Positions 12,353 through 40,524 of a stretch of 64,000 bases of DNA are shown piece after piece. The translations under genes were made by a program, and so were the position numbers. Source of the stretch: a virus (taxonomy: Duplodnaviria; Caudoviricetes); IMG/VR virus record IMGVR_UViG_3300014204_013734, positions 128,001-192,000 of that record; one strand, 5' to 3'. The notes under the pieces are model-generated. The model was given only the letters and a program-made list of their open reading frames with translations, made no database searches and was not told where the DNA came from. Every line of letters begins with the position of its first letter. Within the stretch, counting starts at the first letter, position 1.

Positions 12353-14233
12353 ATGGGCAGCAACCTAGCTAACATCGCTCTCGGGGTGGCTCGGGCCTCC
12401 CGAAACAGGTCGGTGTTGCAGGACACCCCGGCCGATATCATTCAGTTCATTGAATCCCCTTGGGGCATCCACATGCCCTTATTTCCAGTCCAGCGTGTTA
12501 TTCTGAAAGCATATTATGGGTTGGAACTGGACGACAAGGACACGTTTGAAGTTTACTCCGATTGGCATTTGAACAAGATTCGGAATTTCACCGAAGCTGG
12601 GTACTTGCGTTACCTCCATGATGAAGGTCGATGCAACGTCCGGGAAATAGTTCCAGGAAAACCCAAGACGGAACTGGTGTTGAGCATAGGCAGGCGTGGC
12701 GGGAAAACCCTTTTGTCCTCATGTATATCATCTTATGAGTCATATAGATTGATTATGAAGGGAGATCCGAAAAGCTATTACGGGATTTCCCCGTCAACGA
12801 CCATTCAGATTATTGCCATTGCTACGGATAAAGATCAGGCGGGATTGTTATACACGGAAGTTTCCGGACATTTCCGTGGTTGTGACTTTTTCGGTCCCTA
12901 TACGGCTAACAACACCTTGTCCTACGCTAGATTCCAAACTCCGAGTGACATTGAAAAATATGGGCGGTATGCTGATAATCCATCAGCTATGGCGTCGGTG
13001 AAAGTGACGTTCCGGTCGTGTATCGCCAAGGGACTTCGTGGACCTGGTAATATCGTCGTCATCATGGACGAAGCGGCCCATTTTACGGATGGGGGTCAAT
13101 CTTCCGCTGAAGCCGTGTACACTGCCGTCACGCCGTCTACATCAACGTTTGCCCCCAAGGATCCGAACGACAAGCGCAAACCAATTGGGGATGTTGAAGG
13201 CAAGATTATTTCCATCAGTTCCCCATTGGGGAAGCAAGGTCATTTTTACAAACTGTTTCAGACAGGTATGAAGGGTGGAAAGGCGGGGGCCAGCATGCTT
13301 TGTATCCAGGCGCCTACCTGGGAAGCTAACCCGACTCTTCCTGCGTCTGAATACGAAAAGCATTATCACAAGGATCCGACGATATTCTTTACGGAATATG
13401 GCGGAGAATTTACAGACAGAACCCGAGGCTGGTTGGAACGGCCGGAAGATTTGATCGCCTGTGTTGACAAGACGCGTCGGCCAATGACCAATGGGATTCC
13501 TCGTCAGCCCCATTTCATTGGAATTGACCTTGGGCTCGTCAATGATGCCACGGCAGTTGCCATTGGGCATCATGATCTGATTGGGGGTCAGAAGAAAATC
13601 GTTCTTGATTTGGTAGATCAGATTAAGGCGGGGGAAGGGAAATTTTCAGATGTGACCCGGCTGGAATTTGATGATGTTGCCGACTGGATTCTCCAACTGT
13701 CGAAACGGTTTTACTTGGCGGAAGGAATGTTTGACCAATGGACCGGGATCCCGTTTGAACAAGCTTTGGAAAAACGGGGCTTGCGCCAACTGAAATCCGT
13801 GGTCATGACTAAGGCCTTGAACAGCGAAATATATCGAAATTTCAAGGATGTGATGTGGGACAAGTGGTTGGTTCTTTACGATTGGCCTATCCCTGCGGAT
13901 ACTTCGCAGGGGGCGCATTGTGCCTATCTTGAAGAATTGTTTGAACTTCAGGCGGAATATCAATCTAAGTACGTGACCGTTGTTCACGCTCCACAAATAG
14001 AAGGCAAGCATGACGATAGGTCAGATGCCTTGGTGCGTATGATTTGGATGGCCAGCAACGCCCTTGGAAACATGAAACATATGACAGGGACTAGGGGCGG
14101 ATTTGCAACTCTAGGATCGTATCAGGCGTTTGAATCTATGTGGAGGAAATCCAGAATCAAAGCATTGCGGGGCGGTTCAAGTCCTGAACGCCAAATTCCC
14201 AGACAAGGCAGACAATCCCTGCGTACGAGGTAA
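12353..14233 (+). CDS. terL: Terminase large subunit
   Basis: Walker A GRRGGKT, Walker B VVIMDEAAHF, ISSP coupling motif, nuclease FIGIDLG and HDDRSDAL. Confidence 0.93.
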   Translation: MGSNLANIALGVARASRNRSVLQDTPADIIQFIESPWGIHMPLFPVQRVILKAYYGLELDDKDTFEVYSDWHLNKIRNFTEAGYLRYLHDEGRCNVREIVPGKPKTELVLSIGRRGGKTLLSSCISSYESYRLIMKGDPKSYYGISPSTTIQIIAIATDKDQAGLLYTEVSGHFRGCDFFGPYTANNTLSYARFQTPSDIEKYGRYADNPSAMASVKVTFRSCIAKGLRGPGNIVVIMDEAAHFTDGGQSSAEAVYTAVTPSTSTFAPKDPNDKRKPIGDVEGKIISISSPLGKQGHFYKLFQTGMKGGKAGASMLCIQAPTWEANPTLPASEYEKHYHKDPTIFFTEYGGEFTDRTRGWLERPEDLIACVDKTRRPMTNGIPRQPHFIGIDLGLVNDATAVAIGHHDLIGGQKKIVLDLVDQIKAGEGKFSDVTRLEFDDVADWILQLSKRFYLAEGMFDQWTGIPFEQALEKRGLRQLKSVVMTKALNSEIYRNFKDVMWDKWLVLYDWPIPADTSQGAHCAYLEELFELQAEYQSKYVTVVHAPQIEGKHDDRSDALVRMIWMASNALGNMKHMTGTRGGFATLGSYQAFESMWRKSRIKALRGGSSPERQIPRQGRQSLRTR

Positions 14234-14791: not shown

Positions 14792-17700
14792 ATGAATCAG
14801 GATGAAAAAGTGGTCAAGAAGATACCCATCAGGAAGGGTATCGTTACGGGTCGACCCAACAAGGTTGTCACTTCAGCCATGCGGTCTAAAGTGGCATTTC
14901 CGACTTCCGGCGGTACTATCACGGGTTCCGGCGGGAATTTCTATTCTCCTGAACTGTCGACTGACTTCCTTGAACTCCCCCAAAGTATCAATGAACGTTG
15001 GAATTACTATCGCTTTTTCTATGACAACGAACCCTTCGTCGGGCAGGCTATAGATCTGCATACGGAACTTCCCCTTTCAAAAATCCGTCTGGTGCCGCCG
15101 GAAGCCAAGAATAGAGATTTGGCTCAGCAGGCGTTGACCTTTTGTGAAAAATGGTCCAAGAACATTCGGCTTCTTCACCGACTCATTGCAATCGTCCACG
15201 ATTATCACCTGATTGGGGAAGTGTACGTCTTTGCCGAAGACACTTCTCCTGATCTGCCACAGGATGTCCGGCAGGAACCCTTGCGGGAAATCACTTCCGA
15301 AGGGGAAGCCATAGAACGTTGGATAGATCGTCCTGACGCGGATGCACGGGCAATTGATTGGCTCAAGAGAAATTACAAGGGGTGGTCCGCTTTGAGGGTG
15401 CTTCCCCCTGAACAAATCCACATGACGTCATTCCCGTTCACTGACGAAAAAATTATTGAACTGGTTCCGGATTCTAAGACCAAGGACATTGTGGAAAAGG
15501 CTGACGCCGGGGATCTTCAGGCTGTCAGGGTCGTGGAATCCATGCCACAGGACATCATCCAGGCAATCAAGGAAGGTAAGAATATCCCCTTGAATACCGA
15601 TCCTGATGCCGGGTCTTTCGTTCATTATCTGGCTCGGAAGCGGAGTGATTACGACGAACACGGCAAGTCCATTCTTCAACGGTGCCTTCTGCCTGGAACA
15701 CCTATTTGGATCAAGCGGCATGGGACTATCCAACAGATTGCTGTGGAAGAGGTGAATGATTCCACGGATCTTTTGTTGACTCACCTGGGCCGGTTTATGC
15801 CTTGTAAGGCAGGAACCCGCCCGGTAGATGAAGAAATCACCGTCCTTGAAATCGAAGGTGTTGAAGAACCTTTGAAGCTGACTTCCGACCACGAAGTCCT
15901 TCGTGTCCTTGAAGACGGGTCTGAAGAGTGGGTTGCAGCAGGCAAACTGCAAATCGGGGATATTGTTCGGGAAAGTCATGTCCTTCTCGATGGAAATCCG
16001 GATGGAAATCCGGCAATTCCTTATCATTTCAAGAACATTGACATGGTCAGTTGGTGGTCGGGTCGTATCCTTGATTCAATCAAGCGCGGCAGACCCGGCA
16101 CAGATTTGTTGGAAACAGAACGGAAAGTTGTCGTTGAAGCTATTCATCCTGATGGGAATGGTATTGTCGTATCCTTCCGTCATGAAAATGACAATCGGAA
16201 CCGAGTGAAGATTAGTCCTGTGTTGGAAAAGATACTTTCTTGGGCGTTTAGCCTGGAAGTTCCCGTTGTCAAAACGCAGGCGGAAGTAGCTGTTCTTGCA
16301 GGGGTGTCGGAACGTGATGTTAGGATGTACGTCCCCCGTCTCCGTAAAGAAGGTCTGCTGAAGACGGAAGTCAGGTCCCTTGGCAGGGGGAAGGGTCAAT
16401 CCGTGACGTGGTTCCCTGCGGTAACTGGGACGCTTCCCCCTATTATTACAACCCTGTCTTCCCCTATCAGGAATATTGCCGTTGATGAAAATTTCTGTTG
16501 GTTGCTTGGGGCATGGTTTGGGGATGGTTTCGTTTGGACGGAACACGAAACTTTGTTGAACGTTGACTGTGTCGGATGGTCCCTTCACGACCAAGATGTT
16601 GAAGCTAAGGTCGTGGAATTGGTTGATAAGTATTTTGGTTCTGTGAATGTGAAGCGGGGTTGTCTCGTTGACAAGAACACGGATTCCGATGACCTTCGCA
16701 TTGAAGACCCCCTTTTGGCCCGTTGGTTTATGGAAGAATTTGGGTACACGGCACAAGGTAAGCAGATGCCCGAATGGCTTTTCCATCTTCCCGAAAGTTA
16801 CGTCCTGGCTTTTCTTCGTGGTCTGTTAGACACGGATGGTTGGATAGGGGTTGATACGGCATTTCAGATTGGGTTCGGCATGGACAATAAGGTTTTGATT
16901 GACCAGATGCACCTGTTGTGTAATCGGGTCGGGATCAAGACACATGTTGGGAAAAACCATAAGAAGGAACGTTCCTGGACAAGAACCTGGAACACCAAGA
17001 AGGGTGTTCGGGAAAAGACCTATGATTACGAAGCCAAGACTTATCCGACTTTGACTTGTTCTCGTTCCGAAGATGTTCGGCGATGGGCAGGGGAAGGAAG
17101 TATCAAGGGTTCCAGGGTTGAATGGGTAGACAGGGAACCAGACAACCGTAGGGGACCTAAGATGATCGGCGGATGGCTGGTCCACAGGATTGCTTCGGTT
17201 TTGAATACCCCCTACAAGGGTCCGGTGTGGTCGTTTGATGTTGAAGAGGATACTTCTCATTTTACTTCAATCATCACACATAATTGTTTGAGAACGCTGG
17301 TCTTCAGAGACAAGATTCGGCAGGCGCATACGTCCATTGCTTCTCGACACATGACGCCTTACCGGGTCATTTATGCCGAAAATATGAATGATGACCAGAC
17401 GGAAGCCTTGCGTGATCAAGTAGACTTGGCTTTACAAGACCCCGACTATTCCATCATCACGAACTTCGCGGTGACGTGGGAAGAAATGGGCGCCGATCAG
17501 CGGTTGCCCGACTGGTCTTGGGTGTGGGACATGACGGATCGTCAGCTTTATGCCGGTCTCGGCGTAACTGAAAGTCTGTTGTCCGGGGAAGGGGCCTATG
17601 GGGGTGACAGACTTCACCTAGAAGTTATCAACACCAGGTACATGTTACTGCGTGAAATCCTTCAAGATTTCGTTGAACATGATCTGTTCCGTCCTATGTG

Positions 17701-18070
17701 TGCAAGGATGGGGTTCGTTGAGGAAGACGATGAAGGGAATGTAGAACCTTTGGTTCCGCGTTTGTCCTTCACTCGTCTTGCTTTGCGTGATAATTCGGAC
17801 ACCTTTGACGCCTTGTTCAATCTCTACCAGAAGGGCAGCCTTGACATTGACATCATTCTGGATCTTCTCAACATAGATCCGGTAACAACCCGAGAAAAGC
17901 TGCAACGGGATGTGTTCACGTTGAATGATTCTTCGTTCAATGAAGTTTTACGGGGCATCTACCAGAAAGTCGGGGATCTTTTGGTAGAAGGTTCCGATGT
18001 TACGGAAAAGATTGCCGAAAACCTTGGACTGGTGTTCAAGAAAGTCAAGGAAGGCGGCGAACGTTTCTGA
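14792..18070 (+). CDS. Portal protein containing one intein
   Basis: Follows TerL; ~558-aa extein with portal-like motifs (EPFVGQAIDLHTELPL, HGKSILQRC, AGLGVTESLLSGE). Confidence 0.8.
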   Translation: MNQDEKVVKKIPIRKGIVTGRPNKVVTSAMRSKVAFPTSGGTITGSGGNFYSPELSTDFLELPQSINERWNYYRFFYDNEPFVGQAIDLHTELPLSKIRLVPPEAKNRDLAQQALTFCEKWSKNIRLLHRLIAIVHDYHLIGEVYVFAEDTSPDLPQDVRQEPLREITSEGEAIERWIDRPDADARAIDWLKRNYKGWSALRVLPPEQIHMTSFPFTDEKIIELVPDSKTKDIVEKADAGDLQAVRVVESMPQDIIQAIKEGKNIPLNTDPDAGSFVHYLARKRSDYDEHGKSILQRCLLPGTPIWIKRHGTIQQIAVEEVNDSTDLLLTHLGRFMPCKAGTRPVDEEITVLEIEGVEEPLKLTSDHEVLRVLEDGSEEWVAAGKLQIGDIVRESHVLLDGNPDGNPAIPYHFKNIDMVSWWSGRILDSIKRGRPGTDLLETERKVVVEAIHPDGNGIVVSFRHENDNRNRVKISPVLEKILSWAFSLEVPVVKTQAEVAVLAGVSERDVRMYVPRLRKEGLLKTEVRSLGRGKGQSVTWFPAVTGTLPPIITTLSSPIRNIAVDENFCWLLGAWFGDGFVWTEHETLLNVDCVGWSLHDQDVEAKVVELVDKYFGSVNVKRGCLVDKNTDSDDLRIEDPLLARWFMEEFGYTAQGKQMPEWLFHLPESYVLAFLRGLLDTDGWIGVDTAFQIGFGMDNKVLIDQMHLLCNRVGIKTHVGKNHKKERSWTRTWNTKKGVREKTYDYEAKTYPTLTCSRSEDVRRWAGEGSIKGSRVEWVDREPDNRRGPKMIGGWLVHRIASVLNTPYKGPVWSFDVEEDTSHFTSIITHNCLRTLVFRDKIRQAHTSIASRHMTPYRVIYAENMNDDQTEALRDQVDLALQDPDYSIITNFAVTWEEMGADQRLPDWSWVWDMTDRQLYAGLGVTESLLSGEGAYGGDRLHLEVINTRYMLLREILQDFVEHDLFRPMCARMGFVEEDDEGNVEPLVPRLSFTRLALRDNSDTFDALFNLYQKGSLDIDIILDLLNIDPVTTREKLQRDVFTLNDSSFNEVLRGIYQKVGDLLVEGSDVTEKIAENLGLVFKKVKEGGERF
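15683..17284 (+). mobile_element. Intein (534 aa) with LAGLIDADG endonuclease and an inserted winged HTH
   Basis: CLLPGTPI start, LTSDHEV block B, WLLGAWFGDG and FLRGLLDTDG, end VWSFDVEEDTSHFTSIITHN|C. Confidence 0.93.
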
Positions 18071-18142: not shown

Positions 18143-21100
18143 ATGCAGCAGACAGTTTCCAGCGCAAAAGACGGCAGAAAGACGGGGGACGGGTCCGGGG
18201 TCGGATTTTTCATTCCCCTTCCTCCTGATCTTGGGGCGCAGTTCCCTGACCTTGGGGATGAAGACCGCAGCAATCCGCATACGACATTTCTTTACGTTGG
18301 GGAAGTTCCTGAAGAACGAGAAGCCGAATTCCTGGAAGTGTCTGCCCGTGTCCTGGGGACGTTGGGCGGTCTTGTTCGGGGTTATCTTGATCACCTTGAC
18401 TATTTTACGCAGCCAGACAAGGACCGGAAGGTCGCTGTCATGGCGATTCGGTTTGACAAGGATCTTGCAGCACTTAGATGGAATCTACGCGATGCCCTTC
18501 TTGATGCCGGTTTTCAGGTAGCTGATGGATTCCCCCTTCTGTACAAACCGCATGCAACTATCCAATACATGGAAGGACTTGGTTCCGAATGGAAAGGTCA
18601 TGTCCCTTCCGGGTCATGGTCATTTGACAGGATGGAAGTTTGGGGTCTGCCGAAACTGCATTCCGTTTATTTTGGTGAATCCGTGGAAGGACGTGTAGCG
18701 TCCAGGTTCCTGGAATCCATGGAACACGGGGTTTCGGTTGCCTTGATGAAGTTCTTGTCGGATGTTGCCAAAAAAGCAGGCGTGTCAAAAAACACCTACG
18801 TAGTAGGCGGGGCCGTTCGTAATTTCATTTTGGGGGTGCCCGTCAAAGACGTGGATGTCGTGATAGATTCCATTGCTTCGGGCAAGGATTCCGCATGGTT
18901 CGCCAAAAAGGTCAAGGAAGCGATTCCCGTCCCAACCAGTTTCGTGACCAATCAGTACGGTGTTGCATTGCTGACGGTGAAGGGGGATTGGTTCGTTGAT
19001 GGGGCTAATCTGAATGGGGAAACCATAGAGATTGCCAACGCCCGGAAGGAATCCTATGGTGGGGAAGCGGGCCAAGGTTACAAACCCCATATGGTCGCTC
19101 CTGCGACCATAAAGGAAGATGTCATCAGGCGGGATTTCACTTTCAACACCCTCATGTGGCGTCTCCATGATCTATCTTCCGGTCCCGATGCGGCAGAAAT
19201 CCTGGATATAACCGAATGCGGATTGAAGGATCTGCAGGCGGGGGAAATGCGGTGCCCTTCCGATCCTGACAAAACTTTTTCGAATGATCCTTCCAGATTG
19301 ATACGGGCCATAAAATTTATTTTGAAATACGGATTCAAGGTTCCCCCGGAAGTGGAAGCTTCTATTCGCCGTAACGGTCTGAAGCTCAGAAACGTCCCTC
19401 CTGGTCACCTTAGCAACATGATCATTGAATTGTTCTACGAAGGTGGGTGGGGTCGGCGTGCTTTGGAAGAAATGGACAAGTTGGGACTCCTGGAAGTCAT
19501 CAAAGACATAGCTAGGACGGACAAACCTTTCAGGGAAGCCTTGTCCAATTGGGCAGACCGCAAGGCTGACATTTCTTTCCTGTTTGACCTGATTGACATC
19601 GGGATGCCGACCGGAAGGCGTTTGAACTTCCTGACACAACCGCAGAAGGACCGTCTCAGGGAAATAACCGTACAATGGCCTGCTGAGAAGTCCGACGAAT
19701 TTGTAAACCTGCTGGAACAGCCTGGGCGCATCAAGGGTCTTGCTTTCGGGGGATTGATCCAGGAACTTGGGCTTCAAGGACCAGGAATCAAGGCGTTGAC
19801 CGACACCGTTCGCCAACGGCTTCTTGACGATCCTGATTTGGTCAGAAATCCTGACAAGCTCAGGAGGTTGGTCGGGTTGGGGAAAACGGCCGGGATTGAC
19901 AAACCCTTGGACAAGGACTGGTTGATGGCCGTCCGACGGGGATGGTTGAAATTGATGAATCCTGCTATCCGTGATTACGGCGATGTGCTGAAAGCGTTTA
20001 ATGCTTTGGATGCCTTTGCCGAAAACTTGCAGGATCAGGTGCTTAATGTCAGGCGTGATCTTTTTACGAACGATGTCAGAACTGACAAGGTAATTGCCGG
20101 CATCAAGAGGCTTCGGGAAGCAATTTCGGATTCCAGATACCATGCGAAGTTTTGGTCCGAGTGGCTTGACGGGACATCCGTGGGTTTTCGGTTGGGGGAA
20201 GATCGGACCGCAGATGCCTTGAAGATGTTGGAATTGTACCGCACGAATTTTTCTGATGCTTCTGGAACTTCAGTGAAGGGGCGTAAAAGTCCCAGCAACC
20301 CTTGGGCGAATAGCCGACAGGTTCCGTTGACTTATATCCTGGACGCGGTTTTGAAGGGGCTTTACGAAATTGCCAAAAAGAATCTGGAAGTAGGGGAGTC
20401 CGGGGACATACCGGAATATGAATCGTTCTTTCGGGAATTTTCCCTGGGAGGCATGAAGATTCTTATCAGTGATCCGAAAACACATGGTAAGGCGATAGGT
20501 GCCTATGTCCGTCAGATTGGTAAGGCAAAGCATCTTTTGGAAGCGGCTGGATTCGCCAAGGATTGGCGTGGGTTGATGATGGTCCAGTCGTCTGATTGGC
20601 ATGTTTTGACTGACACGGAAAGGGAAATATATCGGCGCAGAGGTTATGACATTCAGGAAACTGCGGGGCAGTATAGAAGTGGATCCGATTCCATTGTCCT
20701 GACTTCCCCCCCGGATTGGTCTTTGGTATTGACAATCGTGCATGAGATCGGACACCGACATTGGTCCAAGTATTTGGATGTTTCCGACAGAAAACGTTTC
20801 GCGGACTGGATTGCCGAAGGTTTGGCTCCGGTCAGCGACTACGGGAAAACCAATCCGTCAGAAGCTTTTGCAGAGGTATTCGCTCATTATGTGAATCGAA
20901 AGAACATGACCAGAGACCAGTTGGAATCCTTCAAAGCAGTGGTCAATAAGACGGCGTCCGAAAAAAAGGTGTTGAAAAACAAAAAAGGCTGCTTGATTTT
21001 GGCTCGTGTAGGGGGTTTGAGTCCGGTTAGGCAGCGCAACGAAGCGGCGCCTGCCCGTAAAGGGTTGTGGGCCTTTCTATGGCCTTGGTTTGACACTTGG

Positions 21101-24100
21101 TTGCTTAGTGGCACGAATGCTAGGGGGTGGCTTGAGAATCAAGATCAAAAAGGGGGCACGCGGTTGGAGGATTTCAAGCGCGAAGGCTACCGGAAATTCA
21201 AACATTGCGGTTATGTGTGGACGCATTTTGATATTCCAGGAAAAGAAGTTTTGACTAAAGGTCATTGGAATTTGGTTCATTCCTCGGATCTGGCGCGGGA
21301 AATTCCTCGGATATACAAGAGCGAACTTAAAGCTTTACGGAAACAGTATTGGGAAGATTCTAAAACCCCTACTACCCCGGCCGGAGTTGAAGAACAGAAA
21401 CAGCAATCCCTTGAATTTGCGGAATATTGGATACGTCGTCAGGACTGGTCCGAAATGTGCGAGGTGTTTGTTGAACCCCATATGGCGGACAAGACGGCGG
21501 CATTCACTGAAAGCGACTTGGAAACTGCCACCAAGGAGTTTGAAGAAGTTGTACAGCGTCTTACTGACAAGAGGGCCCTTTTTGAAAAAGCCTTTGCAAA
21601 CGAAAACGTTGATGACCCAAGGTATTTGCGACACAGGAAAATTGGGCTCAAGGCATGGATGGAAAAACCTTGGGCCTGGTTGGTTTTTAACGGGAATAAG
21701 TTGTCAAGAATCGTGTTGGAACGGAAATCAGTTCCTTCTGGGCAGGGGAAGGCTTTGGAAATGGCGGCTCGGACTTTCATGTCAGCCAAGCGTTTTCCTG
21801 CAGATTTTGAAGGGTGGATGGCCAAGAATTCAAAGTATGTGGCTTTCCTTCTGAATGCCGCGAAAACTTGGGAAGACAAGAAAGAAGGGGGTTCAGAACT
21901 ATTCAAGATCGGTCCATTCACTGTCCACAATACCATCGGGGCGGCGGATGCCGATTTGGAAGGTGTCCGAAAGATGTTTGAAGCAGCAACATCTGCTGTC
22001 GGACGATTGGGCGGGGATTATTCCGATTTCAAGAAGGTTCTTTACGGAGATGTGCTTGTCGTTGCCCGGTTGAGTCAGCCTAAAGTGATGGCTTGGTATA
22101 CCCCCAATGAGGATGCTGTTTATGTCCGGCAGATGAAGACCGCCGGGATTGACGATGTCCACAATCTTATTCACGAATTGGCTCATCGGTTTTGGAGAAA
22201 GTTTGCGGACGCTAAATTGAAGGCGCGTTGGGTACAACGTGATGACATTGTGCGGTGGGGGGATGATTGGTTCAAGGGTTTGAAGTTGCCTGGGATAGGG
22301 GACACCCTTCCAATTATCTTGAACAAGCAAAAGTATCCTAAGATTGTTGATTTGGACGCCAAGGTTTACAAATTGGCGGTGCCAACGATTTTGGATCCTT
22401 ACAATACTGTTTCCATCCCTCGGACCAAGGTTTTGGAATGGGTTCGGGAAGATGCCAAGAAGGAACAGTTTCCTACCCCCTATGCCGCCAGAGGAGGGGT
22501 AGAAGAACACTTCTGCGAAGCCCTTGCCCTCAAGGCACTCGGTAAGCTCCAGAAGAATCACGAAGAAGCTCTTGATAGAGTGTTCAGCGGGGAACCTGAT
22601 CCGAAGGAGATTGCGTTTGTCAAGGATGTTCAGGAGGCCCTGCGGAAACAGAATCCGTCTGTTGTAGCGTTCCGTCATCTGAAAAAGGCTGGGTTTTTCA
22701 ATGTTGGGGATAAAATTTGGTTCGGCAAATATAAAAACAAAGCCGGGATTATAAAGGGCTTTTCACGGGACCCAAAAGGCAATCCGACCGTCATCATTTC
22801 CCCTGTACCCCAAGGACGGAAGCAAGACAAGGAATTTGGCTTGTACAAAATCTGGCATGCCGATCCTGCCAAAAAGGTTGCCGTCCGTTGGATTTTTGGT
22901 TCCCCTGTCAGGGAACCTTGGCAAATGACGTTTGATGAGTTTCGGCGTGAAGTCAAAACCCAAAGAATTGAATGGAAAGCTGTTCAGACGTTTGAAGATT
23001 TTTTGAAAACGAAGAAGGTTGATCCAAAAGAGCTGCCTTCCCTTGAGGAAGAAGCTGACGTTTTGGGGGGTTTGCTTTTCAGTCGTCCAAATATGACGCA
23101 ACATGAAAAAGGTCGTTTGAAAGGAATTGTCCACAAAAAAATGCTAAAGGATAAGCTTGTTAAGGAATGGAAAGACACCGTGGACAAGGTTGAAACCCAC
23201 ACTGATCTTGATTTATCTAGAAGTTCCGATGCTGCCTATTTGAAGGTCCAGCACAAACGGGCTATCAGGAAGGCATTATCTGAAGGGAATCCAGTTCCTT
23301 CCGAAGTTCTTGCAGAATATCCCGACATCAAAACCGGGATGCGTGTCGCCCAGGATGATAGATGGGATCGTCGGAAGCCAGAAGCGTTCCGAACCCTGAT
23401 TCCCGAAGGTATTTCTAAGAGAATTTACCAAGAACAGATCGGGGAAGTCGGGGGTTTCAAGGTGTGGTTGGTAGACGGCATCGTAATTCGTGACAAAATT
23501 GATATTGATTTCACGGCAGGAGGGAACCCGTCAAGGTACGGTTACATTCCTGCGGATGAAATTTGGTTGGAAAAGACTGGGGATTCCCCATTCAGGAATT
23601 TTGATTTGGCCGCTACCTTGATTCACGAACTTGTTGAATCTTGGGTGATGTCAAACTTGGGGTGGGATTACGACAGGGCTCACGACACGGCTTCCAAATT
23701 TGAAAAGGGGTTCAGGAAGCATCCCCGACTGGTGCCGGAGAACCGGATTCTTTTGATTGCGGAATTCTTGTACCGGAAATGGTTGGGGAGTTCCATGTCG
23801 GGTCGGGTTGCCGCCCGTTACAAGGACAAGAAGACCGTTAAAGATAAGAACGGCGACGACATGGTCGTTTACGAATACAGTGACCGACAGATCGCCAACA
23901 GGAATCGGGAAAAGGCGGAACGGGTTGAAAAGCTCCGCGGCAAGTTGGACAAGCTGGTTTCTCAGGTCAAGAAAGACCTGAAGTCTGACGATGAAAAAAC
24001 CCGCATGACCGCCTTGGCGGTTGGGTTAATTAATGACGTGTACGAGCGCGTTGGAAATCCAGGATCCGCCAAGGACGGTCATTTTGGGGTCACTGGTTGG

Positions 24101-27100
24101 CTTGTCAAGCATGTGTCCTTTTCCGATGGGAAGGCCCTTCTTAAATATGTTGGCAAGTCGGGGGTTGAACAGGACAAGGAAACATCGGACGCTGGTTTGG
24201 TGAAAGCGTTGAAGGATGCCGTCAAAGGCAAGAAGAAGGATGATCCGATCTTTGAATTTGATGGAGGTCGGATCAGTTCAGAAACGGTGAACGAATATCT
24301 GAAACCTTTTGACATCACGGCGAAGGATATCCGTGGACTTCACGCCAACAAAGAAACGCAAAAGGCGTTGAAGGCTATCCGGGCTAAGGGCGGAAAGCTT
24401 CCAGAGGATAAGAAAGAACGGGAAAAGAAGCTCAAGGAGGAATTCAAGAAAGCTGTGGAAGAAGCGGCGGAAATCGTTGGACATGAACCTACCACACTTA
24501 AAAATCTGTATTTGGTTCCAAATCTGTACGAGGCGTTTATTGAAGACGGGACGGTCAAGGAAAACCTAGCGAAACAGAAAACAGCGTCCGTTGCTGCGGT
24601 AGATTTGGAAGAACAATTGAAGCTGTTGTCTCCTTCAGACCGTCACCGGTACGATGAACGGTTGAAGGAGGATCAGGAATTTAGGACTAACCAGGCTGTT
24701 ATCTTTTTGGATCGTCGTGTTCCGAAAGATCAGGTTGTCCGTCTTGAAAAGGAACGTTATCAGAAAATTTACAGGTTGTTGAAGGAATCATATAAGAAAG
24801 CACTACGAGATGGAAAAGATGTTTGGGTGCGAGGTGTTCCACAACTTCTTCCCTTGTTTTACAAATATGCCGTTGAAGCTTTGTCCGCTGAATTTCCAGG
24901 ACTTTCTTTTTCCAAACCTGTTGGATTTCTGATGAAAGATCACCAGAAGCCCCTTCGTTTGTGGGATGAAGCTGAGTATATCCATGACTACGTGGAAAAG
25001 AACCTGGGGAAAATTCATCGTGCTACCAAGACGCACGGGGAAAGGGAAGACGAGGAAGTCGCCGAATTGGTTAAGCCCTTGCCTAAGAAAAACCCCCCCA
25101 GGAATGATCTCCGGAAGGAACGCATGGAAGAGAACGACGGAGATGTAGGAAACCAGGGGGCCGACGAAGATAAAGACATGTCCTTGAATTACAAGCGGGT
25201 TGCCAACCGTTGGATTGAAGGAACCCAGAAAAAGCTATCTCCTGATCAGGAAACGCTTTTGCGTTCTTTGTGGTACAACGGGGATGATGCTGCTTTGGCG
25301 ACGTTCTTGGATTGGCCACGTTCCAAAGTCAAAAGAATTGTAGACCAGTTGCAGAAACTTGGTCTTGTGATTGTAGATTCCGACGGGATCATACAAGAAA
25401 ACACAAAGACAAATAGGATTGCCAACCGTTGGTTTCATTCCAAAAAAGACCTCATCAACGTTCGGAGAAAGGAAGATGGCAAGGTCGTTCAAGTCACCGA
25501 AGAGACCTTGAAGGAATCCCCTGATGAATATGAAACCTTGGAAGAAGGGGAACCCGAACCCGAACCCAAACCCGAACCCAAACCTGAACCTGAAAAGAAA
25601 GTTTGGGAATCAGATATGGGTTTGGTCAAGGATGATCAAGGCAAGGTGACTGGAGTTGATAAAGGCGGTAATGCCTTCAAGGAAACAGCCAAGGAATACG
25701 GGAAGGACACTGTTGAACTGGTTCTTTTCCTGCGTGCCTTTGCGCAGGGGGCCAAGATCAAAATCCCCCCTGCCCTTGCGAAAACGAAAGCCTGGAAGGA
25801 AATCTCCGATTATCCGGTTGAAACCAATCCGGCCCTTGTCAAGGGACTTTTGGAAGCCAAAGATTCCCCCTACAAGGAAGTTTTGGATGCGTTTGACGCA
25901 GCCACATCAAAGGGGAAACCTTCAATCATTCCCGAAAAGAAAAAAGAAGTTGAAGCCCCGACGGTCCAGGAAGGTGAATCCAAACCTGTTCCCAAACCGG
26001 AACCCGTTCCGGCCGTTGAAGAACCCGATACATCTGAAAAGGACTTGGATGCCGTTGTTGGTATGCTGGAAGTTGATCCTGACATGCAGGATGCTTCAGC
26101 AAAAATCACCAAGCGTTTATCCGACCCTAAAACCAGAGAAGAAGCGGTACGGGCATACCGGGAAACCTTTGACGAAGTCATGAATGAATTGAAGAACCAA
26201 GGGGGGGAAGGATTTGATGTGTCGGAATCCATGGCTACCGACCTTGGGGATGCTTTAAAGAATCCTGCCGGAGGGCGTGACGGAAAAGATTTGGGTCGCG
26301 ATTTAGCCCTTCATTCCATCGCCAAGCGTTTGGCGGATCCTGCTAATTTGGACGGGGTTGGTCTTTCGGAAGAGCCTTTGGATGAAATGACCCTTATTGA
26401 TCGGGGTGATCGTGCCCTGGAATTTTATGTCAAGTTTCCCGCTAATTTCCGTCAGGAAGTTGCTCGCCAAATGGTGGATAGGATCAGGGAAGCTAAGGAA
26501 AAAGGCGGTCCGCAAATACAGGAACTTGAACGCATTACTGCGGGTTTGCAAGCTGCTGCAATCGTTCATGATGATTTCAAGGACAAGAGGAACAAATGGC
26601 CCCTTTCTATTTCCCGTCCCGCCCCTGTTTTTAATGGGATTGTGAAATCTCTTTATGAAAAAGGGGATACTCGGGTTGTTGCGTCTTTCGGTATCGGGGC
26701 TCAAGGATTAGCTACGCCGGAAGGTCGGGAAAAATTGCGGCAGGCATTGGATTCCCTTGATGAAGATGAATTGTTTGAAGCGTTGGGCGGGGAGAAGGGC
26801 GAATGGGGTTTGATGATCCGAAACCTTAAGAAAGGGGGTTTGAGGGAAAAGGACAAGGCATGGTATTTGAATTTCATGAAGGAAATGACTGTTGGTGAAG
26901 TTACGACAGGGAATACGGTAGTGATGCAGGCGGCTACGAACGCCCAGGAAGTGAAGGCAAAGGCGGATAAAGAAAGAGAACGTAACCGGGAAGTGAAGCC
27001 GACTTCAGCCCAGATGGAACCTTCCTGGTCGGACTTAATTGATCCTAAATCCGAAAACACCATCGGGGAAGCGGCGGACGCTGTTCACAAAGATGCCCAG

Positions 27101-28511: not shown

Positions 28512-29090
28512 ATGACCCGCAAGAACGCGACATTGTCAGTTAACTACCAACAACGGGCGAAGCTATTTGCCGTAAACGATATTGTTTACCCGTTTTGGGG
28601 TTCCGCCGAAAAGACGGGACGTGTCGTGGCGGTTTACCCGGCAATTGGGATGGTTGATGTCGAATGGCCACACGGAAATGACCGTGTACCCGTTGAGGAC
28701 CTTCAGCAACTGAATCCCCACAGTCTGTTCCAACCTCCGTCCATCCCTGCCGGGGAAGATAGTATCCCCGGTGGGGCTGGGCAGGTTTCCGTATCCCCAG
28801 GACCAGTTAACAAAAATTCAGCTCTCCGTGTGGCGGCCGCTTTCATTAAGAAAGCCCTTTATTGGGCCGACAAAGACCGGCAGTACAAGGCCACGCAAGG
28901 GGAACTTGATGACAAGTGTTACCATTGCCCGAAGTGCGGGGAAGAACTGCGGAAGGCAATCTACAAACGTCGTGATGGCGCCAGTGTCCATCTTCTCGGT
29001 TGCGGAACATGCTTGTTCCTGATCAAAAAAGAAGACATCATTGGCGATCCTGAATATGCGGGTCCGAACATCGAAATAGAAGGTGTTTGA
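28512..29090 (+). CDS. Hypothetical protein with C-terminal zinc ribbon
   Basis: CPKC...CGTC; RVAAAF and KKA motifs between its two domains. Confidence 0.7.
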   Translation: MTRKNATLSVNYQQRAKLFAVNDIVYPFWGSAEKTGRVVAVYPAIGMVDVEWPHGNDRVPVEDLQQLNPHSLFQPPSIPAGEDSIPGGAGQVSVSPGPVNKNSALRVAAAFIKKALYWADKDRQYKATQGELDDKCYHCPKCGEELRKAIYKRRDGASVHLLGCGTCLFLIKKEDIIGDPEYAGPNIEIEGV

Positions 29091-29092
29091 CC

Positions 29093-32000
29093 ATGGCATT
29101 TTTGCGTTACAGTAACGCCCGGGTTGTTTCCCCCCACGTGACTCATGTGCAATGGGGGAAAATTAGGACGGCTGGCCTTGTTACTAAGGTTGGTGGCCAG
29201 TTGGACGAAAATCTTGTCGATCGGGCCAGTGAATTGTTCGACAAACAATTCAACCCCAACGACTTTCTTCTGACCCACGCCACTATCATTGCCAGCGTTG
29301 ACACGTACAAACCGGCCGGGGATATGGGGAAGACAGGTTCCTTCTTGATGGATGGATTCCGGGTCAACCGCAAATATGCGGATTATAGAATTACCCAAGA
29401 GACTCAAAAATACATCAACAGCAATTGCCTTGTTTCTGGGACGCCCATTGTGATGGCAGATGGAACAGCAAAATCAATTGAAGATGTTGTTGTAGGGGAT
29501 GATGTTATCACCCATATGGGACGGATCAGAAAAGTCACAGAAACTTTTTGTCACGAAGTTCATGGAAACTTGTATGAAATCAAAGTATATGGTTCTAACG
29601 AACGTCTGCATGTGACTAAGGACCATCCTTTTTTTGTTTTTCGTCCAAATAAACAATGTGCTGAGTGTGGAAGCCCCTTAAAAAGATCTTTGCAATGTAT
29701 TTCGCAACTGCTTGGGAAGCATTACTGTTCCAAGGAATGCTATTACAAGAAAAGGGTCACAAACAAAGAACTTCTTAAAAAGAAGCATGGGGTTTTCGTT
29801 CCCGTACATGATTTGCAGGTAGGGGATTTTGCAGCAGTTCCTGTAGTTTCAGAAGAAATTCCAGTTAATTTGACATTAGGGCAGGCTCGTTTGATTGGCC
29901 TTTTTCTTGCGGAGGGTTATTACGAATTAGATAGCCGGCACGATAATGAAAAAGTTGGGGCTATGTGGGCGTTTCATGAAAAAGAAACAGAAACATTAGC
30001 CCATACTGTTTGTTCTTTGATGAAATCAGAATTTGATGTGGATTGTGTCATTCGTCATTGCACTGATACTAAAGGTATTATGGTAACGACAAAAGTCAAC
30101 CGCCAAGCTGCGGCTTTCTTTTCCCGATGGGTTCTTGGAGAAGATTCTACTAGTAAATATCTTTGCGCGGATTTGTTGAGGGCTCAGAAACCCATTCAGA
30201 TGGAAATAATGCGTGGCTGGTTTGATGGGGATGGTTCGGCTTTTAGTACCGGAACTGAAGAAATTCCCATAAGGGATTTTCGGATGACCGGATGCACATC
30301 ATCTCGGAAAATGGTTTCCCAACTGCAAATAATTCTGCATCGTCTTGGTATTTCACCTCGGTTAGCCTATGTTCTTAGTGAAGGTCGCCAACGAACGGTT
30401 ATTGATGGTCTTGTTAAGGTGATACCTGATCCAACAAAAATTCAATACAGTTGGGTTTTGTCTTGTGGCGCTGGATGGATATCTGAATTGGTAGAAACAA
30501 CCCGATTTGAAGAATCTTATAATGAAGTCATGTCTATTTTAGGGGGGGTTCAAGAAGTTCCAGATCTTAGGTTTCTGAATGGTTTTTGTATTAGGATGAT
30601 AACTTCAATAGAACCATATCCTTATCAAGGATTTGTTTATAACATTGAAACAGAAGAAGATCATTCTTACATTGCAGGTGGAATTGCCGTACATAATAGC
30701 GATAGTTGGTCCCGTGAAGTGCTTTTGAAGGCGTATCCAACGTTCATTGGCGGGCACAATTTCTGTTTTGCACCGGGTACTAGGGTTCTCTTGGAAAATG
30801 GCATCTATAAAGCCATTGAAGAAATACGTGTTGGCGACAAAGTTGTTACCCACAAAGGTGTGTTGCAGGAAGTAACCCACAAATTTGAACGCCAATTCCT
30901 GGGGAATCTTCAGGTTATTTGTGTGGATGGGTTTGAACATCCCTTGCGTGTTACTGGAAACCATCCTTTTTTGGTGATGGAAAACCAAACTGGAAATACC
31001 TGGATTCCAGCAGATAAACTGCAAGTTGGAACCCTCTTGGCAGGGACCAGTTCGGAAATAGGTGCTGTCAATTATCGTGTCCTATCCAATGTTGAAGTTT
31101 CTTACGAAGGTCTTGTGTACAATCTTGAAGTTTGTGATGATAATTCCTACATCGTGGAACCTGGTGTTGCAGTTCATAATTGCGAGCACGTCCAGGTTGA
31201 ATCTCTGAGCAAGGGTCGCATCATTGATGCAGTTGCCCGTGACATCGGGGATTCGGTCTACGTTGACATCCTCATTGCCACTGACCGCAGACACAAGGAT
31301 CTCATTGAATCCATTGAAAATGGCAAGACGAATACACTGAGTATGGGATGTTCAGTGGACATGACTACATGTACTAAATGTGGCCACGTGGCCGCTGACG
31401 AGACCACTCTTTGTAACCATATAAAATACGAAAAAGGCAATACCTTTTTTGACGAGCAAGGACGGTCACATCGTATCTGCGAAATTTGCGGCCACCAGTC
31501 TATTGATCCGCACGGAGGGGTTCAGTTCATTGAAGCTTCGTGGGTTGCCCAACCGGCATTCACTGGAGCTGTGATGAGGAACATCATTCAGCCGACCGAA
31601 GATACCGTTCGTTTGGCGCAGCACATTCTCAATACCCCTCCGCCGCAATGGACCGAAGATTCCCGTCTGAAAGCCGCTAGGCATGAGGTTGTTGGGTCTA
31701 CAGGGACGGACGGCAACGGCAACGGCAACGGAGAAACGGTTGTAGTAGGTTCCTCAAAATTCCGTACGGCAGACATGTCTTCCGGCGGACGGCATTTCAC
31801 TGTTACGGCTGCCGAAATGGATCCTTTCATGGCAGGTTGGAACGAAGAGGATTCTTCAGGTACGGAACCGGAAAAACCACCTGTCCAGCCAACCCCAGCG
31901 GATCCTTTGACGCAGGTTGAAGACGATTTGGAAAAGCACCTTGTAGACAAGGTCGTCAAACGTGTCAGGGATCGTCTAAAAGACCAGGCTGTTGAAGAAA

Positions 32001-32431
32001 CTCTGAAACCGTCGTCAGCCGAAACCAACGAAAACGTGGTTAAAGAAGCCCGTACCGCCAAGTTGGCGATTCGTGTTTACAAGGCTGGTTTGAAGGCCCT
32101 TGTCAAGAAGTCAACCAACGGGGCGGATCTGTTGGATTCCGTTGCTGCATTCAATCAACAGGCAGGAATTGATATCCCCGTTGACGTTTACCGGACGGCA
32201 TTGGCTGTAGGTCCTTCTTCTGACCATGAGTCTATCGATTCGTTCCTGGATAAATGTTCACAGTGTTTGGGACGGTGTCCCGACATCAGTGAATCAAAAA
32301 CTCTGGTGAAGTTGTGCAAGTTGCTTTCGCAAGGACAACCTTTGTGGAAAGCGGATTCCAGTGGAAGCCCCCTAAATCAGGGGACGCGTCAAGCGGTTCG
32401 AAACAAACCCGATTGGAGGAACGTGAAATGA
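29093..32431 (+). CDS. Prohead (capsid maturation) serine protease with two inteins
   Basis: Spliced extein NSN|SDSW...YPTFIGGHNF|CEH...TLSMGC...CTKCGH...FIEASWVAQPAF fits a His/Ser phage prohead protease; upstream of scaffold and capsid genes. Confidence 0.82.
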   Translation: MAFLRYSNARVVSPHVTHVQWGKIRTAGLVTKVGGQLDENLVDRASELFDKQFNPNDFLLTHATIIASVDTYKPAGDMGKTGSFLMDGFRVNRKYADYRITQETQKYINSNCLVSGTPIVMADGTAKSIEDVVVGDDVITHMGRIRKVTETFCHEVHGNLYEIKVYGSNERLHVTKDHPFFVFRPNKQCAECGSPLKRSLQCISQLLGKHYCSKECYYKKRVTNKELLKKKHGVFVPVHDLQVGDFAAVPVVSEEIPVNLTLGQARLIGLFLAEGYYELDSRHDNEKVGAMWAFHEKETETLAHTVCSLMKSEFDVDCVIRHCTDTKGIMVTTKVNRQAAAFFSRWVLGEDSTSKYLCADLLRAQKPIQMEIMRGWFDGDGSAFSTGTEEIPIRDFRMTGCTSSRKMVSQLQIILHRLGISPRLAYVLSEGRQRTVIDGLVKVIPDPTKIQYSWVLSCGAGWISELVETTRFEESYNEVMSILGGVQEVPDLRFLNGFCIRMITSIEPYPYQGFVYNIETEEDHSYIAGGIAVHNSDSWSREVLLKAYPTFIGGHNFCFAPGTRVLLENGIYKAIEEIRVGDKVVTHKGVLQEVTHKFERQFLGNLQVICVDGFEHPLRVTGNHPFLVMENQTGNTWIPADKLQVGTLLAGTSSEIGAVNYRVLSNVEVSYEGLVYNLEVCDDNSYIVEPGVAVHNCEHVQVESLSKGRIIDAVARDIGDSVYVDILIATDRRHKDLIESIENGKTNTLSMGCSVDMTTCTKCGHVAADETTLCNHIKYEKGNTFFDEQGRSHRICEICGHQSIDPHGGVQFIEASWVAQPAFTGAVMRNIIQPTEDTVRLAQHILNTPPPQWTEDSRLKAARHEVVGSTGTDGNGNGNGETVVVGSSKFRTADMSSGGRHFTVTAAEMDPFMAGWNEEDSSGTEPEKPPVQPTPADPLTQVEDDLEKHLVDKVVKRVRDRLKDQAVEETLKPSSAETNENVVKEARTAKLAIRVYKAGLKALVKKSTNGADLLDSVAAFNQQAGIDIPVDVYRTALAVGPSSDHESIDSFLDKCSQCLGRCPDISESKTLVKLCKLLSQGQPLWKADSSGSPLNQGTRQAVRNKPDWRNVK
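29426..30697 (+). mobile_element. Intein (424 aa) with LAGLIDADG endonuclease and a Cys-rich insert
   Basis: CLVSGTPI, VTKDHPF, LIGLFLAEG and MRGWFDGDG, end VYNIETEEDHSYIAGGIAVHN|S. Confidence 0.95.
30764..31180 (+). mobile_element. Mini-intein (139 aa)
   Basis: CFAPGTRV, VTGNHPF, end VYNLEVCDDNSYIVEPGVAVHN|C; no endonuclease domain. Confidence 0.95.
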
Positions 32432-39201: not shown

Positions 39202-40524
39202 ATGACCGCCAAGGACATTTTAGAAACTTTGAAAGAGAACAAGGTACGTTACCTTCGCCTGTGGTTCTCTGATATTTTGGGCCACAACAAGAACGTAGAA
39301 GTTCCAGAAAGCCAGTTTGAAAAGGCACTGGATGGCCAAATACTCTTTGACGGTTCCTCAATTGAGGGTTTCGCCCGCATTGAGGAGTCCGACATGCTGT
39401 TGCGCCCTGACTTTGCTACCTTCTGCATCTTTCCGTGGGAGGAACGTGGGGGCAAGGTAGCACGTCTTATTTGTGACGTGTTCCATCCAGACGGCACCCC
39501 TTTTGAAGGGTGTCCCCGGACCGTCCTGAAACGGGTTTGTGAGAAGGCATTGAAACTCGGCTATGTTATGATGGCCGGCCCCGAAGCCGAGTTCTTCCTC
39601 TTTGAACGCACTGTGGGTTCGTCTGTTCCTAAAACACATGACGTCGGCAGTTATTTTGACCTGACCCCAGTGGACCGGGCCGAAGATGCACGTCGGGACA
39701 TTGTGTCGGTCCTGGAGACCATCGGCTTTGAAGTCGAGGCGGCCCATCACGAAGTGGCCTTCGGCCAGCACGAGATTGATTTCCGTTACGCTGAGGCACT
39801 CAAAACTGCTGACAACGTGGCGACCTTCCGGTTTGTCGTGCGTAAAGTAGCTCTTGATCATCACTTGCTCGCCACCTTCATGCCCAAACCCATCTTTGGT
39901 ATCAACGGTTCCGGCATGCACGTCCATCAGAGCCTTTTCACACAGGAAGGCAAAAATGCCTTCTATGACGCCGATGCCAAGTACCAGATCTCTGAAACGG
40001 GGCTTTCATACATTGGCGGTCTGCTTGCCCATGCCCGTGGGTTCTGTGCTGTCACGAATCCGCTTGTGAACTCGTACAAACGCCTTGTGCCGGGCTACGA
40101 GGCGCCTACGCACATCGCATGGTCCGAACGCAACAGGTCCCCGCTTGTTCGTGTCCCGGCTCGCCGTGGTGTGGGCACGCGTGCTGAGCTGCGCATGCCC
40201 GACCCCTCCTGTAACCCCTATCTTGCCATGGCCGTGACGTTGGCGGCCGGGCTTGACGGCATTGAGAAACACCTTGACCCTGGCCCTCCGGTGAATCAGA
40301 ACATTTATACGATGAGCCCGCAGGAACGTGCAAGGCTCAAAATAAGTTCCTTGCCCGGGGATCTGGGAGAAGCCGTGGAAGCGATGCAGAAAGACGATTT
40401 GGTACGGGAAGCTTTAGGAGACCACGTTTTCCAGCATTTCATTGCCGCCAAGACGCAGGAATGGCAGGAATACATTGCACAGGTCCATCCCTGGGAGGTG
40501 GAACGGTATCTCTCGGCTTATTGA
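39202..40524 (+). CDS. glnA: Glutamine synthetase type I (GSI-alpha-like)
   Basis: FDGSSIEGF, HHEVAFGQHEIDF, ATFMPKPIFGINGSGMHVHQS, NSYKRLVPGYEAP, ELRMPDPSCNPYLA; 440 aa. Confidence 0.96.
   Translation: MTAKDILETLKENKVRYLRLWFSDILGHNKNVEVPESQFEKALDGQILFDGSSIEGFARIEESDMLLRPDFATFCIFPWEERGGKVARLICDVFHPDGTPFEGCPRTVLKRVCEKALKLGYVMMAGPEAEFFLFERTVGSSVPKTHDVGSYFDLTPVDRAEDARRDIVSVLETIGFEVEAAHHEVAFGQHEIDFRYAEALKTADNVATFRFVVRKVALDHHLLATFMPKPIFGINGSGMHVHQSLFTQEGKNAFYDADAKYQISETGLSYIGGLLAHARGFCAVTNPLVNSYKRLVPGYEAPTHIAWSERNRSPLVRVPARRGVGTRAELRMPDPSCNPYLAMAVTLAAGLDGIEKHLDPGPPVNQNIYTMSPQERARLKISSLPGDLGEAVEAMQKDDLVREALGDHVFQHFIAAKTQEWQEYIAQVHPWEVERYLSAY

Follow-up and report, generated by a model that had tools for sequence, protein, structure and literature searches.

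Coupling RNA 3'-end healing to tail addition has a cellular precedent: the multifunctional CCA-adding/repair enzyme of Escherichia coli, reportedly characterized by Yakunin et al. in 2004 (PMID 15210699), is said to be a class II nucleotidyltransferase whose healing domain is an HD domain at the C terminus. CCA enzymes are also known from phages, and 2H phosphoesterase domains are known from phage polyvalent proteins. Here we analyze a phage module that joins a 2H domain to a CCA-type nucleotidyltransferase. It lies in IMG/VR virus record IMGVR_UViG_3300014204_013734, in a stretch of 64,000 nucleotides (nt) (positions 128,001 to 192,000 of the record; called the window below) that belongs to one virus contig of 381,280 bp with a CheckV completeness estimate of 72%.

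Polyvalent proteins are predicted to enter the host with the DNA, and 2H is among their domains (PMC5512222). In theta-ribozyme phages, a CCA enzyme is enriched 250-fold and a DRB0094-type ligase 140-fold (PMC10879173); the publication's text contains neither "cyclic phosphate" nor "phosphodiesterase." Phage tRNAs trimmed by theta ribozymes or ribozymes like that of hepatitis delta virus (HDV), described in 2024, have to be freed of their 2',3'-cyclic phosphate ahead of CCA addition, and this step has had no enzyme assigned to it. A direct candidate is the 2H domain of the present phage, which is fused to the only CCA-type enzyme detected in this genome. We propose, at a probability of roughly 60%, that residues 1 to 579 of a 3098-residue open reading frame (ORF) in the window are two independent enzymes, a 2H domain that opens RNA 2',3'-cyclic phosphates (RNA>p) and a CCA-type enzyme that rebuilds the 3' tail, and that their substrates are the phage's own ribozyme-cut tRNAs.

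A 2H domain and a CCA-type nucleotidyltransferase in one chain

The giant ORF (P0001; 18143..27439, + strand, 9297 nt) begins with an ATG at 18143, with GAGGG ahead of it and the portal stop codon 72 nt upstream. The first-pass annotation had marked 18143-19880 as a 2H phosphoesterase fused to a CCA-type enzyme. Its start is this ATG, and its end fits the end of the nucleotidyltransferase unit as delimited by 150 homologues (residues 572 to 579); however, the module is not a protein of its own but the N terminus of the giant ORF.

The 2H domain (residues 18 to 180; 18194..18682, +) is assigned from an AlphaFold (AF2) model, its fold matches, and its homologues. The model of the module has a predicted local distance difference test (pLDDT) score of 90.9, with about 90 for the 2H domain, which adopts a fold like that of LigT and cyclic phosphodiesterases (CPDases). 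The two HxT motifs seen in the first reading of the sequence were borne out: H46-T-T48 (HTTFLY; 18278..18286, +) and H137-A-T139 (HATIQY; 18551..18559, +) are invariant at H46, T48, H137, and T139 in 69 homologues of the domain (E<1e-10). The first motif has Tyr at +5, like Phe48 in ThpR, and the second has Tyr where ThpR has Arg130. On its own, the sequence scores 22.1 bits with PF13563 (gathering score, 27) and matches TIGR02258 with an E-value of 5e-4. Among 25 homologous 2H domains of related phages, 23 match PF13563 (E<=0.01; best, 4.7e-13), several of them above the cutoff, and other Pfam matches are to LigT_PEase (15 copies), AKAP7 (10), and, weakly, Acb1 (4). The family profile matches P. 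horikoshii PH0099, T. thermophilus TT0787, and the D. radiodurans CPDase, and the fold matches DrCPDase (5h7e; VIA Z 14.8, 157 residues aligned, root mean square deviation 3.7), YjcG (2d4g; 14.0), 1iuh (13.0), and LigT (5ldm; 12.6). Because the homologues match PF13563 and the fold matches CPDase, the identity of the domain is secure despite its weak own score. From sequence and model we place it in the LigT group of 2H enzymes, as a subfamily of its own with predicted activity on RNA>p.

The domain is followed by a boundary, RVASRF (residues 184 to 189; 18692..18709, +), with low pLDDT at residues 181 to 184. In relatives that have separate 2H and nucleotidyltransferase ORFs, the split falls at this boundary; at locus L018, for example, a frame of 206 codons encodes the 2H domain, and its end coincides with the start of the nucleotidyltransferase ORF. 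A six-frame search of the genome with PF13563 (E<=0.1) gave no match, but it missed the known 2H domain itself, and a second divergent one could escape it.

Residues 192 to 579 (18716..19879, +) make up the head, neck, body, and tail of a class II nucleotidyltransferase, the layout of CCA-adding enzymes of about 370 to 420 residues, according to Pfam (PF01743 and PF12627), phmmer against the PDB, and the fold. A class II enzyme with a DxD motif had been proposed at the outset, and both are there: the PolyA_pol head domain PF01743 covers residues 218 to 369 (E 2.9e-15), and motif A, G222-G-A-V-R-N ... D236-V-D238 (18806..18856, +), provides the metal-binding carboxylates. G222, G223, R226, D236, and D238 are invariant (alignment A1, 130 homologues), and throughout the phage family Asn takes the place of the final Asp of GGxVRD. 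In the motif B region, EDVIRRDFTFN (residues 325 to 335; 19115..19147, +), the stretch R329-R-D-F-T (RR(E/D)FT in the family) aligns with RRDFT of E. coli poly(A) polymerase (PAP) I and yeast Cca2. The EDxxR templating motif of the first-pass annotation was misplaced. The only literal ED..R is EDVIR at residues 325 to 329, which flanks motif B, where EDVIRRDFTFN aligns with EDAQRRDFTIN in the comparison with PAP I and Cca2, and the true motif D is N381-D-P-S-R385 (19283..19297, +), which aligns with EDPVR and EDPLR of PAP I and Cca2 and in which the canonical Glu is replaced. The family consensus is (D/N)DP(T/S)R, with D382 and R385 at least 90% conserved.

In structure comparisons the unit reaches a VIA Z of 23.7 with T. 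maritima 3h38 (316 residues aligned; model 191 to 579, chain 12 to 421) and 20.8 with tRNA-bound 5hc9; A-adding enzymes range from 20 to 21.5, PAP I scores about 18, and CC-adding enzymes about 17. A Foldseek structure match has an E-value of 1e-11, and phrog_2244 matches the sequence with 6e-27. The NCBIfam CCA models give 73 bits against a cutoff of 439 (TIGR02692), 57 against 290 (NF009814), and 47 against 451 (NF008137), and the PAP models 89 against 306 (TIGR01942, pcnB) and 56 against 702 (NF008634). Such scores, 73 to 89 bits for the curated CCA and PcnB equivalogs with cutoffs of 305 to 439, indicate a separate phage family and not an orthologue of the cellular enzymes. Because the motif D Glu is absent and the family is a separate one, nucleotide specificity cannot be read from the sequence. 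The unit looks like a full-length class II CCA-type nucleotidyltransferase that is catalytically intact in appearance.

Healing partners and ribozyme-trailed tRNAs

An exhaustive search for the nucleotidyltransferase family yielded 326 cluster representatives at E<=1e-30, and 412 IMG/VR contigs of up to 536 kb carry a relative. Domain architectures were taken from the best 150 of the 326 representatives, partner Pfam domains from the 120 listed, and gene order from 80 IMG/VR loci of the 412 contigs. The unit of 385 residues occurs alone (in proteins of about 390 residues) or anywhere within larger proteins. It is accompanied by a 2H domain in 41 of the best 150 representatives; this domain precedes the unit, with or without an insert between them, or follows it. 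A HAD_SAK_1 phosphatase is fused in about 20 of the 120 listed chains, and other partners in the same chain are inorganic pyrophosphatase (InPase), DUF5661, RNA ligase PF09414, and a Zeta/AAA_33 kinase together with HAD_SAK_1, as well as ART-PolyVal, superoxide dismutase, and C39 peptidases. One protein reads nucleotidyltransferase-HAD_SAK_1-2H with DFDGT intact (P0040), and another reads nucleotidyltransferase-InPase-2H (P0027). Enzymes that open cyclic phosphates, cleave phosphomonoesters, add nucleotides, and remove the pyrophosphate product make a coherent 3'-end pathway. Healing followed by addition at RNA 3' ends is well supported, chiefly by these recurrent end-healing fusions.

Head genes surround the nucleotidyltransferase in 51 of the 80 loci, in the order g10685, g11188, TerL, portal, nucleotidyltransferase protein(s), g27560, and protease. 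A 2H domain is found in the same or a neighboring ORF in 34 of these 51 loci and a topoisomerase IB in 41, whereas in the 29 loci that lack head genes the nucleotidyltransferase stands alone and a 2H domain never occurs. In some relatives the giant ORF is divided into two to four ORFs. A portal-anchored survey found the nucleotidyltransferase in 13 of the 22 loci with enough downstream DNA; it is a frequent, not a universal, cargo of the head module. The nearest cultured phage has a TerL identity of only 30%.

Some members of the family stand out by themselves. The best relative in phage databases (32% identity) lies within a 1233-residue multidomain ORF of the uncultured 735-kb phage LR756501 (L002:820-4521). 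Cellulophaga phage phi17:2 (L001, NC_021798 17907-19797) has a 245-residue nucleotidyltransferase with the head domain only, and genes for a WGR-PARP protein and a DNA ligase come after it; gp033, upstream of this nucleotidyltransferase, was considered as a split 2H domain and discarded, with no Pfam match and an E-value of 67 against the 2H domain described here. An association of stand-alone family members with tRNA genes was likewise rejected, tRNAs being found within 10 kb at 1 of 29 such loci. Two tandem 2H domains precede the nucleotidyltransferase at L066:3670-5091, and a 948-residue ORF at L067:9893-12736 holds two tandem nucleotidyltransferase units. Inserts of ~450 residues split the nucleotidyltransferase at motif B (query residues 333 to 337) in P0002, P0029, P0050, P0051, P0063, P0231, L045, and L084; they are probably active-site inteins, because P0231 carries intein and LAGLIDADG Pfam domains.

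The substrates that we propose come from the same genome, which has 35 tRNA genes (aragorn) in two arrays outside the window. The 24 tRNAs that encode CCA have T-rich trailers, whereas a conserved element of 66 to 89 nt lies 3' of the tRNAs without encoded CCA. One copy of this element matches the full Rfam model HDV-F-prausnitzii (35.5 bits; gathering score, 44; genome E-value, 1e-5), and the match begins at the base directly after tRNA-His. Eleven copies share the HDV topology, with P1, a P2 pseudoknot, P3, a variable P4, and an invariant C in GGGC(U/C)AA. Their P1-P4 fold is 95.6% paired, compared with at most 47% in slid controls, and shows compensatory changes in 14 of 21 pairs. A covariance model built from the genome's 11 copies (R1, a narrow model with an effective sequence number of 2.5) finds 12 copies in the genome (C1:49285-86394, loci L086 and L087, outside the window), each 0 to 1 nt past a tRNA 3' end and one of them next to a tRNA missed by aragorn. 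An HDV-like ribozyme adjoins 12 of 12 CCA-less tRNAs and 0 of 24 CCA-encoding ones. The copy at Ser(cga) is without P4 and of theta-like size. A YrlA-like Y RNA match (38 bits; gathering score, 69) also lies in the tRNA array region, at L086:2479-2580 (+), equal to C1:51278-51379.

The cleavage site of HDV-type ribozymes is at their 5' end, and the product upstream of it bears a 2',3'-cyclic phosphate. With a ribozyme directly 3' of the tRNA, the CCA-less tRNAs should therefore emerge as tRNA-N73>p. Hence, the 12 CCA-less tRNAs with ribozymes at 0 to 1 nt make maturation of the phage's own tRNAs a better-documented need here than repair of host damage. The only PF01743 match in the genome is the giant ORF, which also has the one 2H domain detected in this phage, and a stand-alone gene for HAD_SAK_1, its DxDxT motif (DFDGT) intact, lies beside the tRNA array (C1:87636-88292). 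RtcB, Thg1, and a DraRnl-like ligase (DRB0094-like) are encoded as well, and an AAA_33-type P-loop kinase had no match in this genome. The RtcB match (C1:69061-71361, - strand) consists of two pieces ~1 kb apart in one 869-codon frame, and the gap is probably another intein.

How would these parts act on a tRNA? We hypothesize that the 2H domain opens the cyclic phosphate on a discriminator-ended tRNA to give a monophosphate, that a phosphatase then removes the monophosphate, and that the nucleotidyltransferase finally adds C, C, and A. The candidate for the second step is the phage HAD_SAK_1 protein acting in trans; in relatives it would be the HAD_SAK_1 phosphatase of the same chain. The substrates would be made constitutively in this phage, as 12 CCA-less tRNAs freed by HDV-like ribozymes, and the same chemistry would mend tRNAs whose tails host nucleases had cut. 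As the module opens a polyvalent protein next to the portal, it may also enter the head and reach the host together with the DNA. The first-pass annotation had cautioned that a 2H enzyme alone may leave a monophosphate, a caveat that is answered in relatives by the fused HAD_SAK_1; here, the stand-alone gene lies beside the tRNA array. Its proposal that the module restores tRNA 3' ends keeps the backing of the intact-looking domains and the end-healing fusions; the host damage in that proposal was assumed, and the genome supplies a ribozyme-cut substrate of its own.

Weighing other explanations

Several points weigh against the maturation of ribozyme-cut tRNAs as the role of the module. We know of no class II enzyme established to extend a 2'-phosphate end, and the host almost certainly has a CCA enzyme of its own. 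Pfam detects no MuF, LPD, or other known packaging domain in the giant ORF. The nucleotidyltransferase lacks the motif D Glu and stays far below the equivalog cutoffs, and the second motif of the 2H domain is HxTxxY (family consensus PHVTLAY) and not HxTxxR, the Arg of which is essential in ThpR, which converts RNA>p into a 2'-phosphate (PMC4201822). R1, with 12 copies here, finds no ribozyme in the records of 35 related phages, of which five reach a completeness of 90% or more, although divergent ribozymes in relatives could escape so narrow a search. An Rfam search of the tRNA arrays of three relatives with 2H and nucleotidyltransferase (56 kb) gave no HDV-type match among the 150 rows listed, and RF02682 has no match in four near-complete relatives. 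A general pairing of ribozyme and 2H domain is rejected on these searches. Finally, relative G002 keeps the module though 62 of its 66 tRNAs encode CCA.

In the three relatives with 2H and nucleotidyltransferase, 42 of 62, 27 of 38, and 16 of 24 tRNAs are CCA-less. The need to add CCA to phage tRNAs is common in the clade, and the ribozyme-made cyclic ends appear to be special to this phage. Since relatives without detected ribozymes keep the 2H domain, it must have another source of substrate there, for which host-inflicted tRNA damage is the obvious candidate and a plausible one. The 536-kb relative G001 has a full tmRNA gene (145 bits; L089:1791-2191, - strand) inside its tRNA array, and several trailers of that array share the repeat GGGGACTTACTT...GTGCGTAGA.

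Counter-defense as the main role of the module survives best among the other explanations, but we consider it unlikely. In this case the module, delivered with the genome, would restore tRNA 3' tails (with 3'-OH or cyclic phosphate ends) cut by host nucleases or toxins. Enzymes that inflict such damage have been described. Cas12a3 cuts tRNA CCA tails as an antiphage defense, and its authors call the means of viral resistance "yet unknown" (PMC12851939); RsCas13 cuts tRNA 3' tails by a metal-independent chemistry that leads to a 2',3'-cyclic phosphate (bioRxiv 10.64898/2026.08.25.746378); and CdiA-CT EC869 is reported to cleave tRNA 3' acceptor regions (PMC9071432). The persistence of the module in relatives without detectable ribozymes and in G002 fits this role, as does the portal-adjacent head-gene setting in 51 of 80 loci. 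However, no host or defense system is known for this phage, packaging is deduced from gene order only, and the module is accessory, as its presence in 13 of 22 portal-anchored loci indicates. The chemistry is also common to the maturation of the phage's own tRNAs, which makes counter-defense a second use more than a true alternative.

A broader version, in which a huge-phage clade loads a tRNA-tail repair kit (2H and CCA enzyme, with a phosphatase at their side) into the capsid within a portal-adjacent polyprotein and, once it is injected, rebuilds from the first minute of infection the tails cut by host immunity such as Cas12a3, Cas13, or tail-cutting toxins, appears doubtful to us; packaging and injection are suggested by gene order and the polyvalent-protein precedent (PMC5512222). 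If true, the injected kit would be the resistance route that the Cas12a3 study was missing. In 2026, the cutting of tRNA tails was presented as an immune strategy of CRISPR systems that phage tRNAs are unable to evade, and a widespread phage family of 412 contigs that couples end healing to tail addition, frequently within a polyprotein among the head genes, offers concrete proteins as a possible countermeasure.

We regard it as improbable that the 2H domain degrades immune signaling nucleotides, like Acb1 or the viral 2',5'-phosphodiesterases, and is functionally unrelated to the nucleotidyltransferase. Polyvalent proteins mix weapons, and a signal-degrading role has been proposed for their 2H domains, which were never seen with RNA ligases (Iyer et al. 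2017, PMC5512222). Besides the 10 AKAP7 matches, 4 of the 25 homologues match Acb1 weakly (best E-value, 4.9e-4), and the fold is also like those of AKAP18 (Z 12.6) and the rotavirus VP3 phosphodiesterase (Z 11.4). The sequence in question has no match to PF23474 (Acb1), and Acb1 is absent among the 50 VIA structure matches listed for the module model. However, both in sequence and in fold the domain matches LigT-group RNA cyclic phosphodiesterases best. Moreover, the 2H domain occurs with the nucleotidyltransferase in 34 of 51 head-context loci and in none of the 29 others, and it shares chains with HAD_SAK_1 and pyrophosphatase, which together form a coherent RNA-end pathway. The Acb1-type alternative that the first-pass annotation had kept in reserve is weak.

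It is less likely still that the nucleotidyltransferase is a poly(A) polymerase or another tailing enzyme, which would mark host RNA for decay or modify phage transcripts, and not a CCA enzyme. The best single PDB sequence match (phmmer) is indeed E. coli PAP I (E 7e-16), pcnB is the top NCBIfam score, and the motif D Glu is replaced. However, the enzyme lacks the G(R/K)(R/K)F signature of PAP, which lies between motifs A and B, as had been noticed from the start: no string of the form [LIV][LIV]G[RK][RK]F occurs in residues 1 to 600, and where E. coli PAP I reads vGRRFrla, the phage enzyme reads vTNQYGva (FVTNQYGVA). The structural Z scores are higher for CCA- and A-adding enzymes (20 to 24) than for PAP I, and 12 tRNAs of the genome need CCA with no other class II enzyme detected. 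Hardly credible is a service of the 2H domain to the topoisomerase IB of the same polypeptide, by healing cyclic phosphate nicks at ribonucleotides in DNA: type IB topoisomerases can leave a cyclic phosphate at ribonucleotides, and 41 of 51 head-context loci also have a topoisomerase IB, but the 2H domain mostly adjoins the nucleotidyltransferase and not the topoisomerase, and ribonucleotides in the DNA of this phage are without evidence.

The locus and its place among known systems

The giant ORF is located between the portal and prohead protease genes. Upstream lie the large terminase subunit (12353..14233, +; PHROG 2, E 9e-25) and the portal protein (14792..18070, +), which contains a LAGLIDADG intein, ends 72 nt before the giant ORF, and is supported by synteny in relatives; downstream, the prohead protease (29087..32431, +) is broken by inteins. 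Beyond the module, the giant ORF has zincin-like HExxH modules (HEIGH at 867 and HELAH at 1344), a weak zincin/ATLF Pfam match at residues 866 to 928, and a topoisomerase IB core at residues 1918 to 2121 (Pfam E 6e-26), so that several unrelated catalytic domains share one polypeptide. A phosphatase in cis after the nucleotidyltransferase was considered and rejected, since residues 580 to 1000 resemble an ATLF/zincin-type peptidase.

The RVASRF boundary is one instance of the motif R-[VILM]-A-x-[RK]-[WFY], which has 12 copies in ORFs of at least 80 residues compared with 2.2 expected by shuffling. Copies in the window lie at 18692-18709, 23804-23821, 25196-25213, 25415-25432, 42526-42543, and 43388-43405, and others in the genome lie within C1:87636-88292, 348772-349251, and 100456-101505. 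Four are in the giant ORF and others are at protein ends, including the C terminus of the HAD_SAK_1 phosphatase (KRVALRWIKRNA). The motif also follows the 2H domain in related phages and may be a docking, targeting, or cleavage tag. The window further encodes a glutamine synthetase (39202-40524; Gln-synt_C, E 9e-139).

How does the module compare with what is known? Like the E. coli CCA/repair enzyme, it couples a class II nucleotidyltransferase and a 2',3'-cyclic phosphodiesterase domain, the latter predicted here, in one chain. Unlike that enzyme, its healing domain is an N-terminal 2H domain, no HD family is among the Pfam matches of the giant ORF at E<=1, and the score with NF008137 is 47 bits against 451; the chain has no built-in phosphatase step and is part of a 3098-residue head-gene protein. 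The tRNA nucleotidyltransferases of jumbo and theta-ribozyme phages (Iyer et al. 2021, PMC7824862; Kienbeck et al. 2024, PMC10879173; PHROG 2244) are likewise phage-encoded class II enzymes, and this phage resembles the theta-ribozyme phages in its many tRNAs, its ribozyme-trailed CCA-less tRNAs, and its DRB0094-like RNA ligase. However, known phage nucleotidyltransferases are described as stand-alone, whereas the enzyme of this phage, like those of at least 34 related loci, is fused to a 2H domain or has one next to it and lies between the portal and protease genes. The pairing of 2H and CCA enzyme as a recurrent head-module cargo of huge phages was not found in the literature searched.

The 2H domain shares with ThpR/LigT and DrCPDase the fold (Z 12.6 to 14.8), the two HxT motifs, and the aromatic residue at +5 of the first motif, and it differs from them in its HxTxxY second motif, an identity of about 18%, and its fusion to other enzymes. 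T4 Pnkp/Rnl1 and the "Swiss Army Knife" RNA repair proteins (PF10307) offer a parallel in function, a phage-borne means to heal and restore damaged tRNA, and relatives have HAD_SAK_1, kinase, and ligase in the same chain. In contrast, the predicted product here is an extended 3' tail and not a sealed anticodon loop, and the healing domain is 2H in place of the HAD phosphatase of Pnkp.

The giant ORF as a whole is comparable with the polyvalent proteins (Iyer et al. 2017, PMC5512222), being a giant chain of unrelated catalytic domains, including 2H and peptidases, next to head genes. It differs from them in that no MuF or LPD Pfam domain was detected in it. The text of the polyvalent-protein survey contains no "CCA" and makes no link between 2H and RNA repair, whereas the nucleotidyltransferase described here adjoins the 2H domain. 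Our reading would add a CCA-type enzyme to the known set of polyvalent-protein domains and would tie a 2H domain of such proteins to RNA repair, a connection that the 2017 survey (PMC5512222) had argued against.

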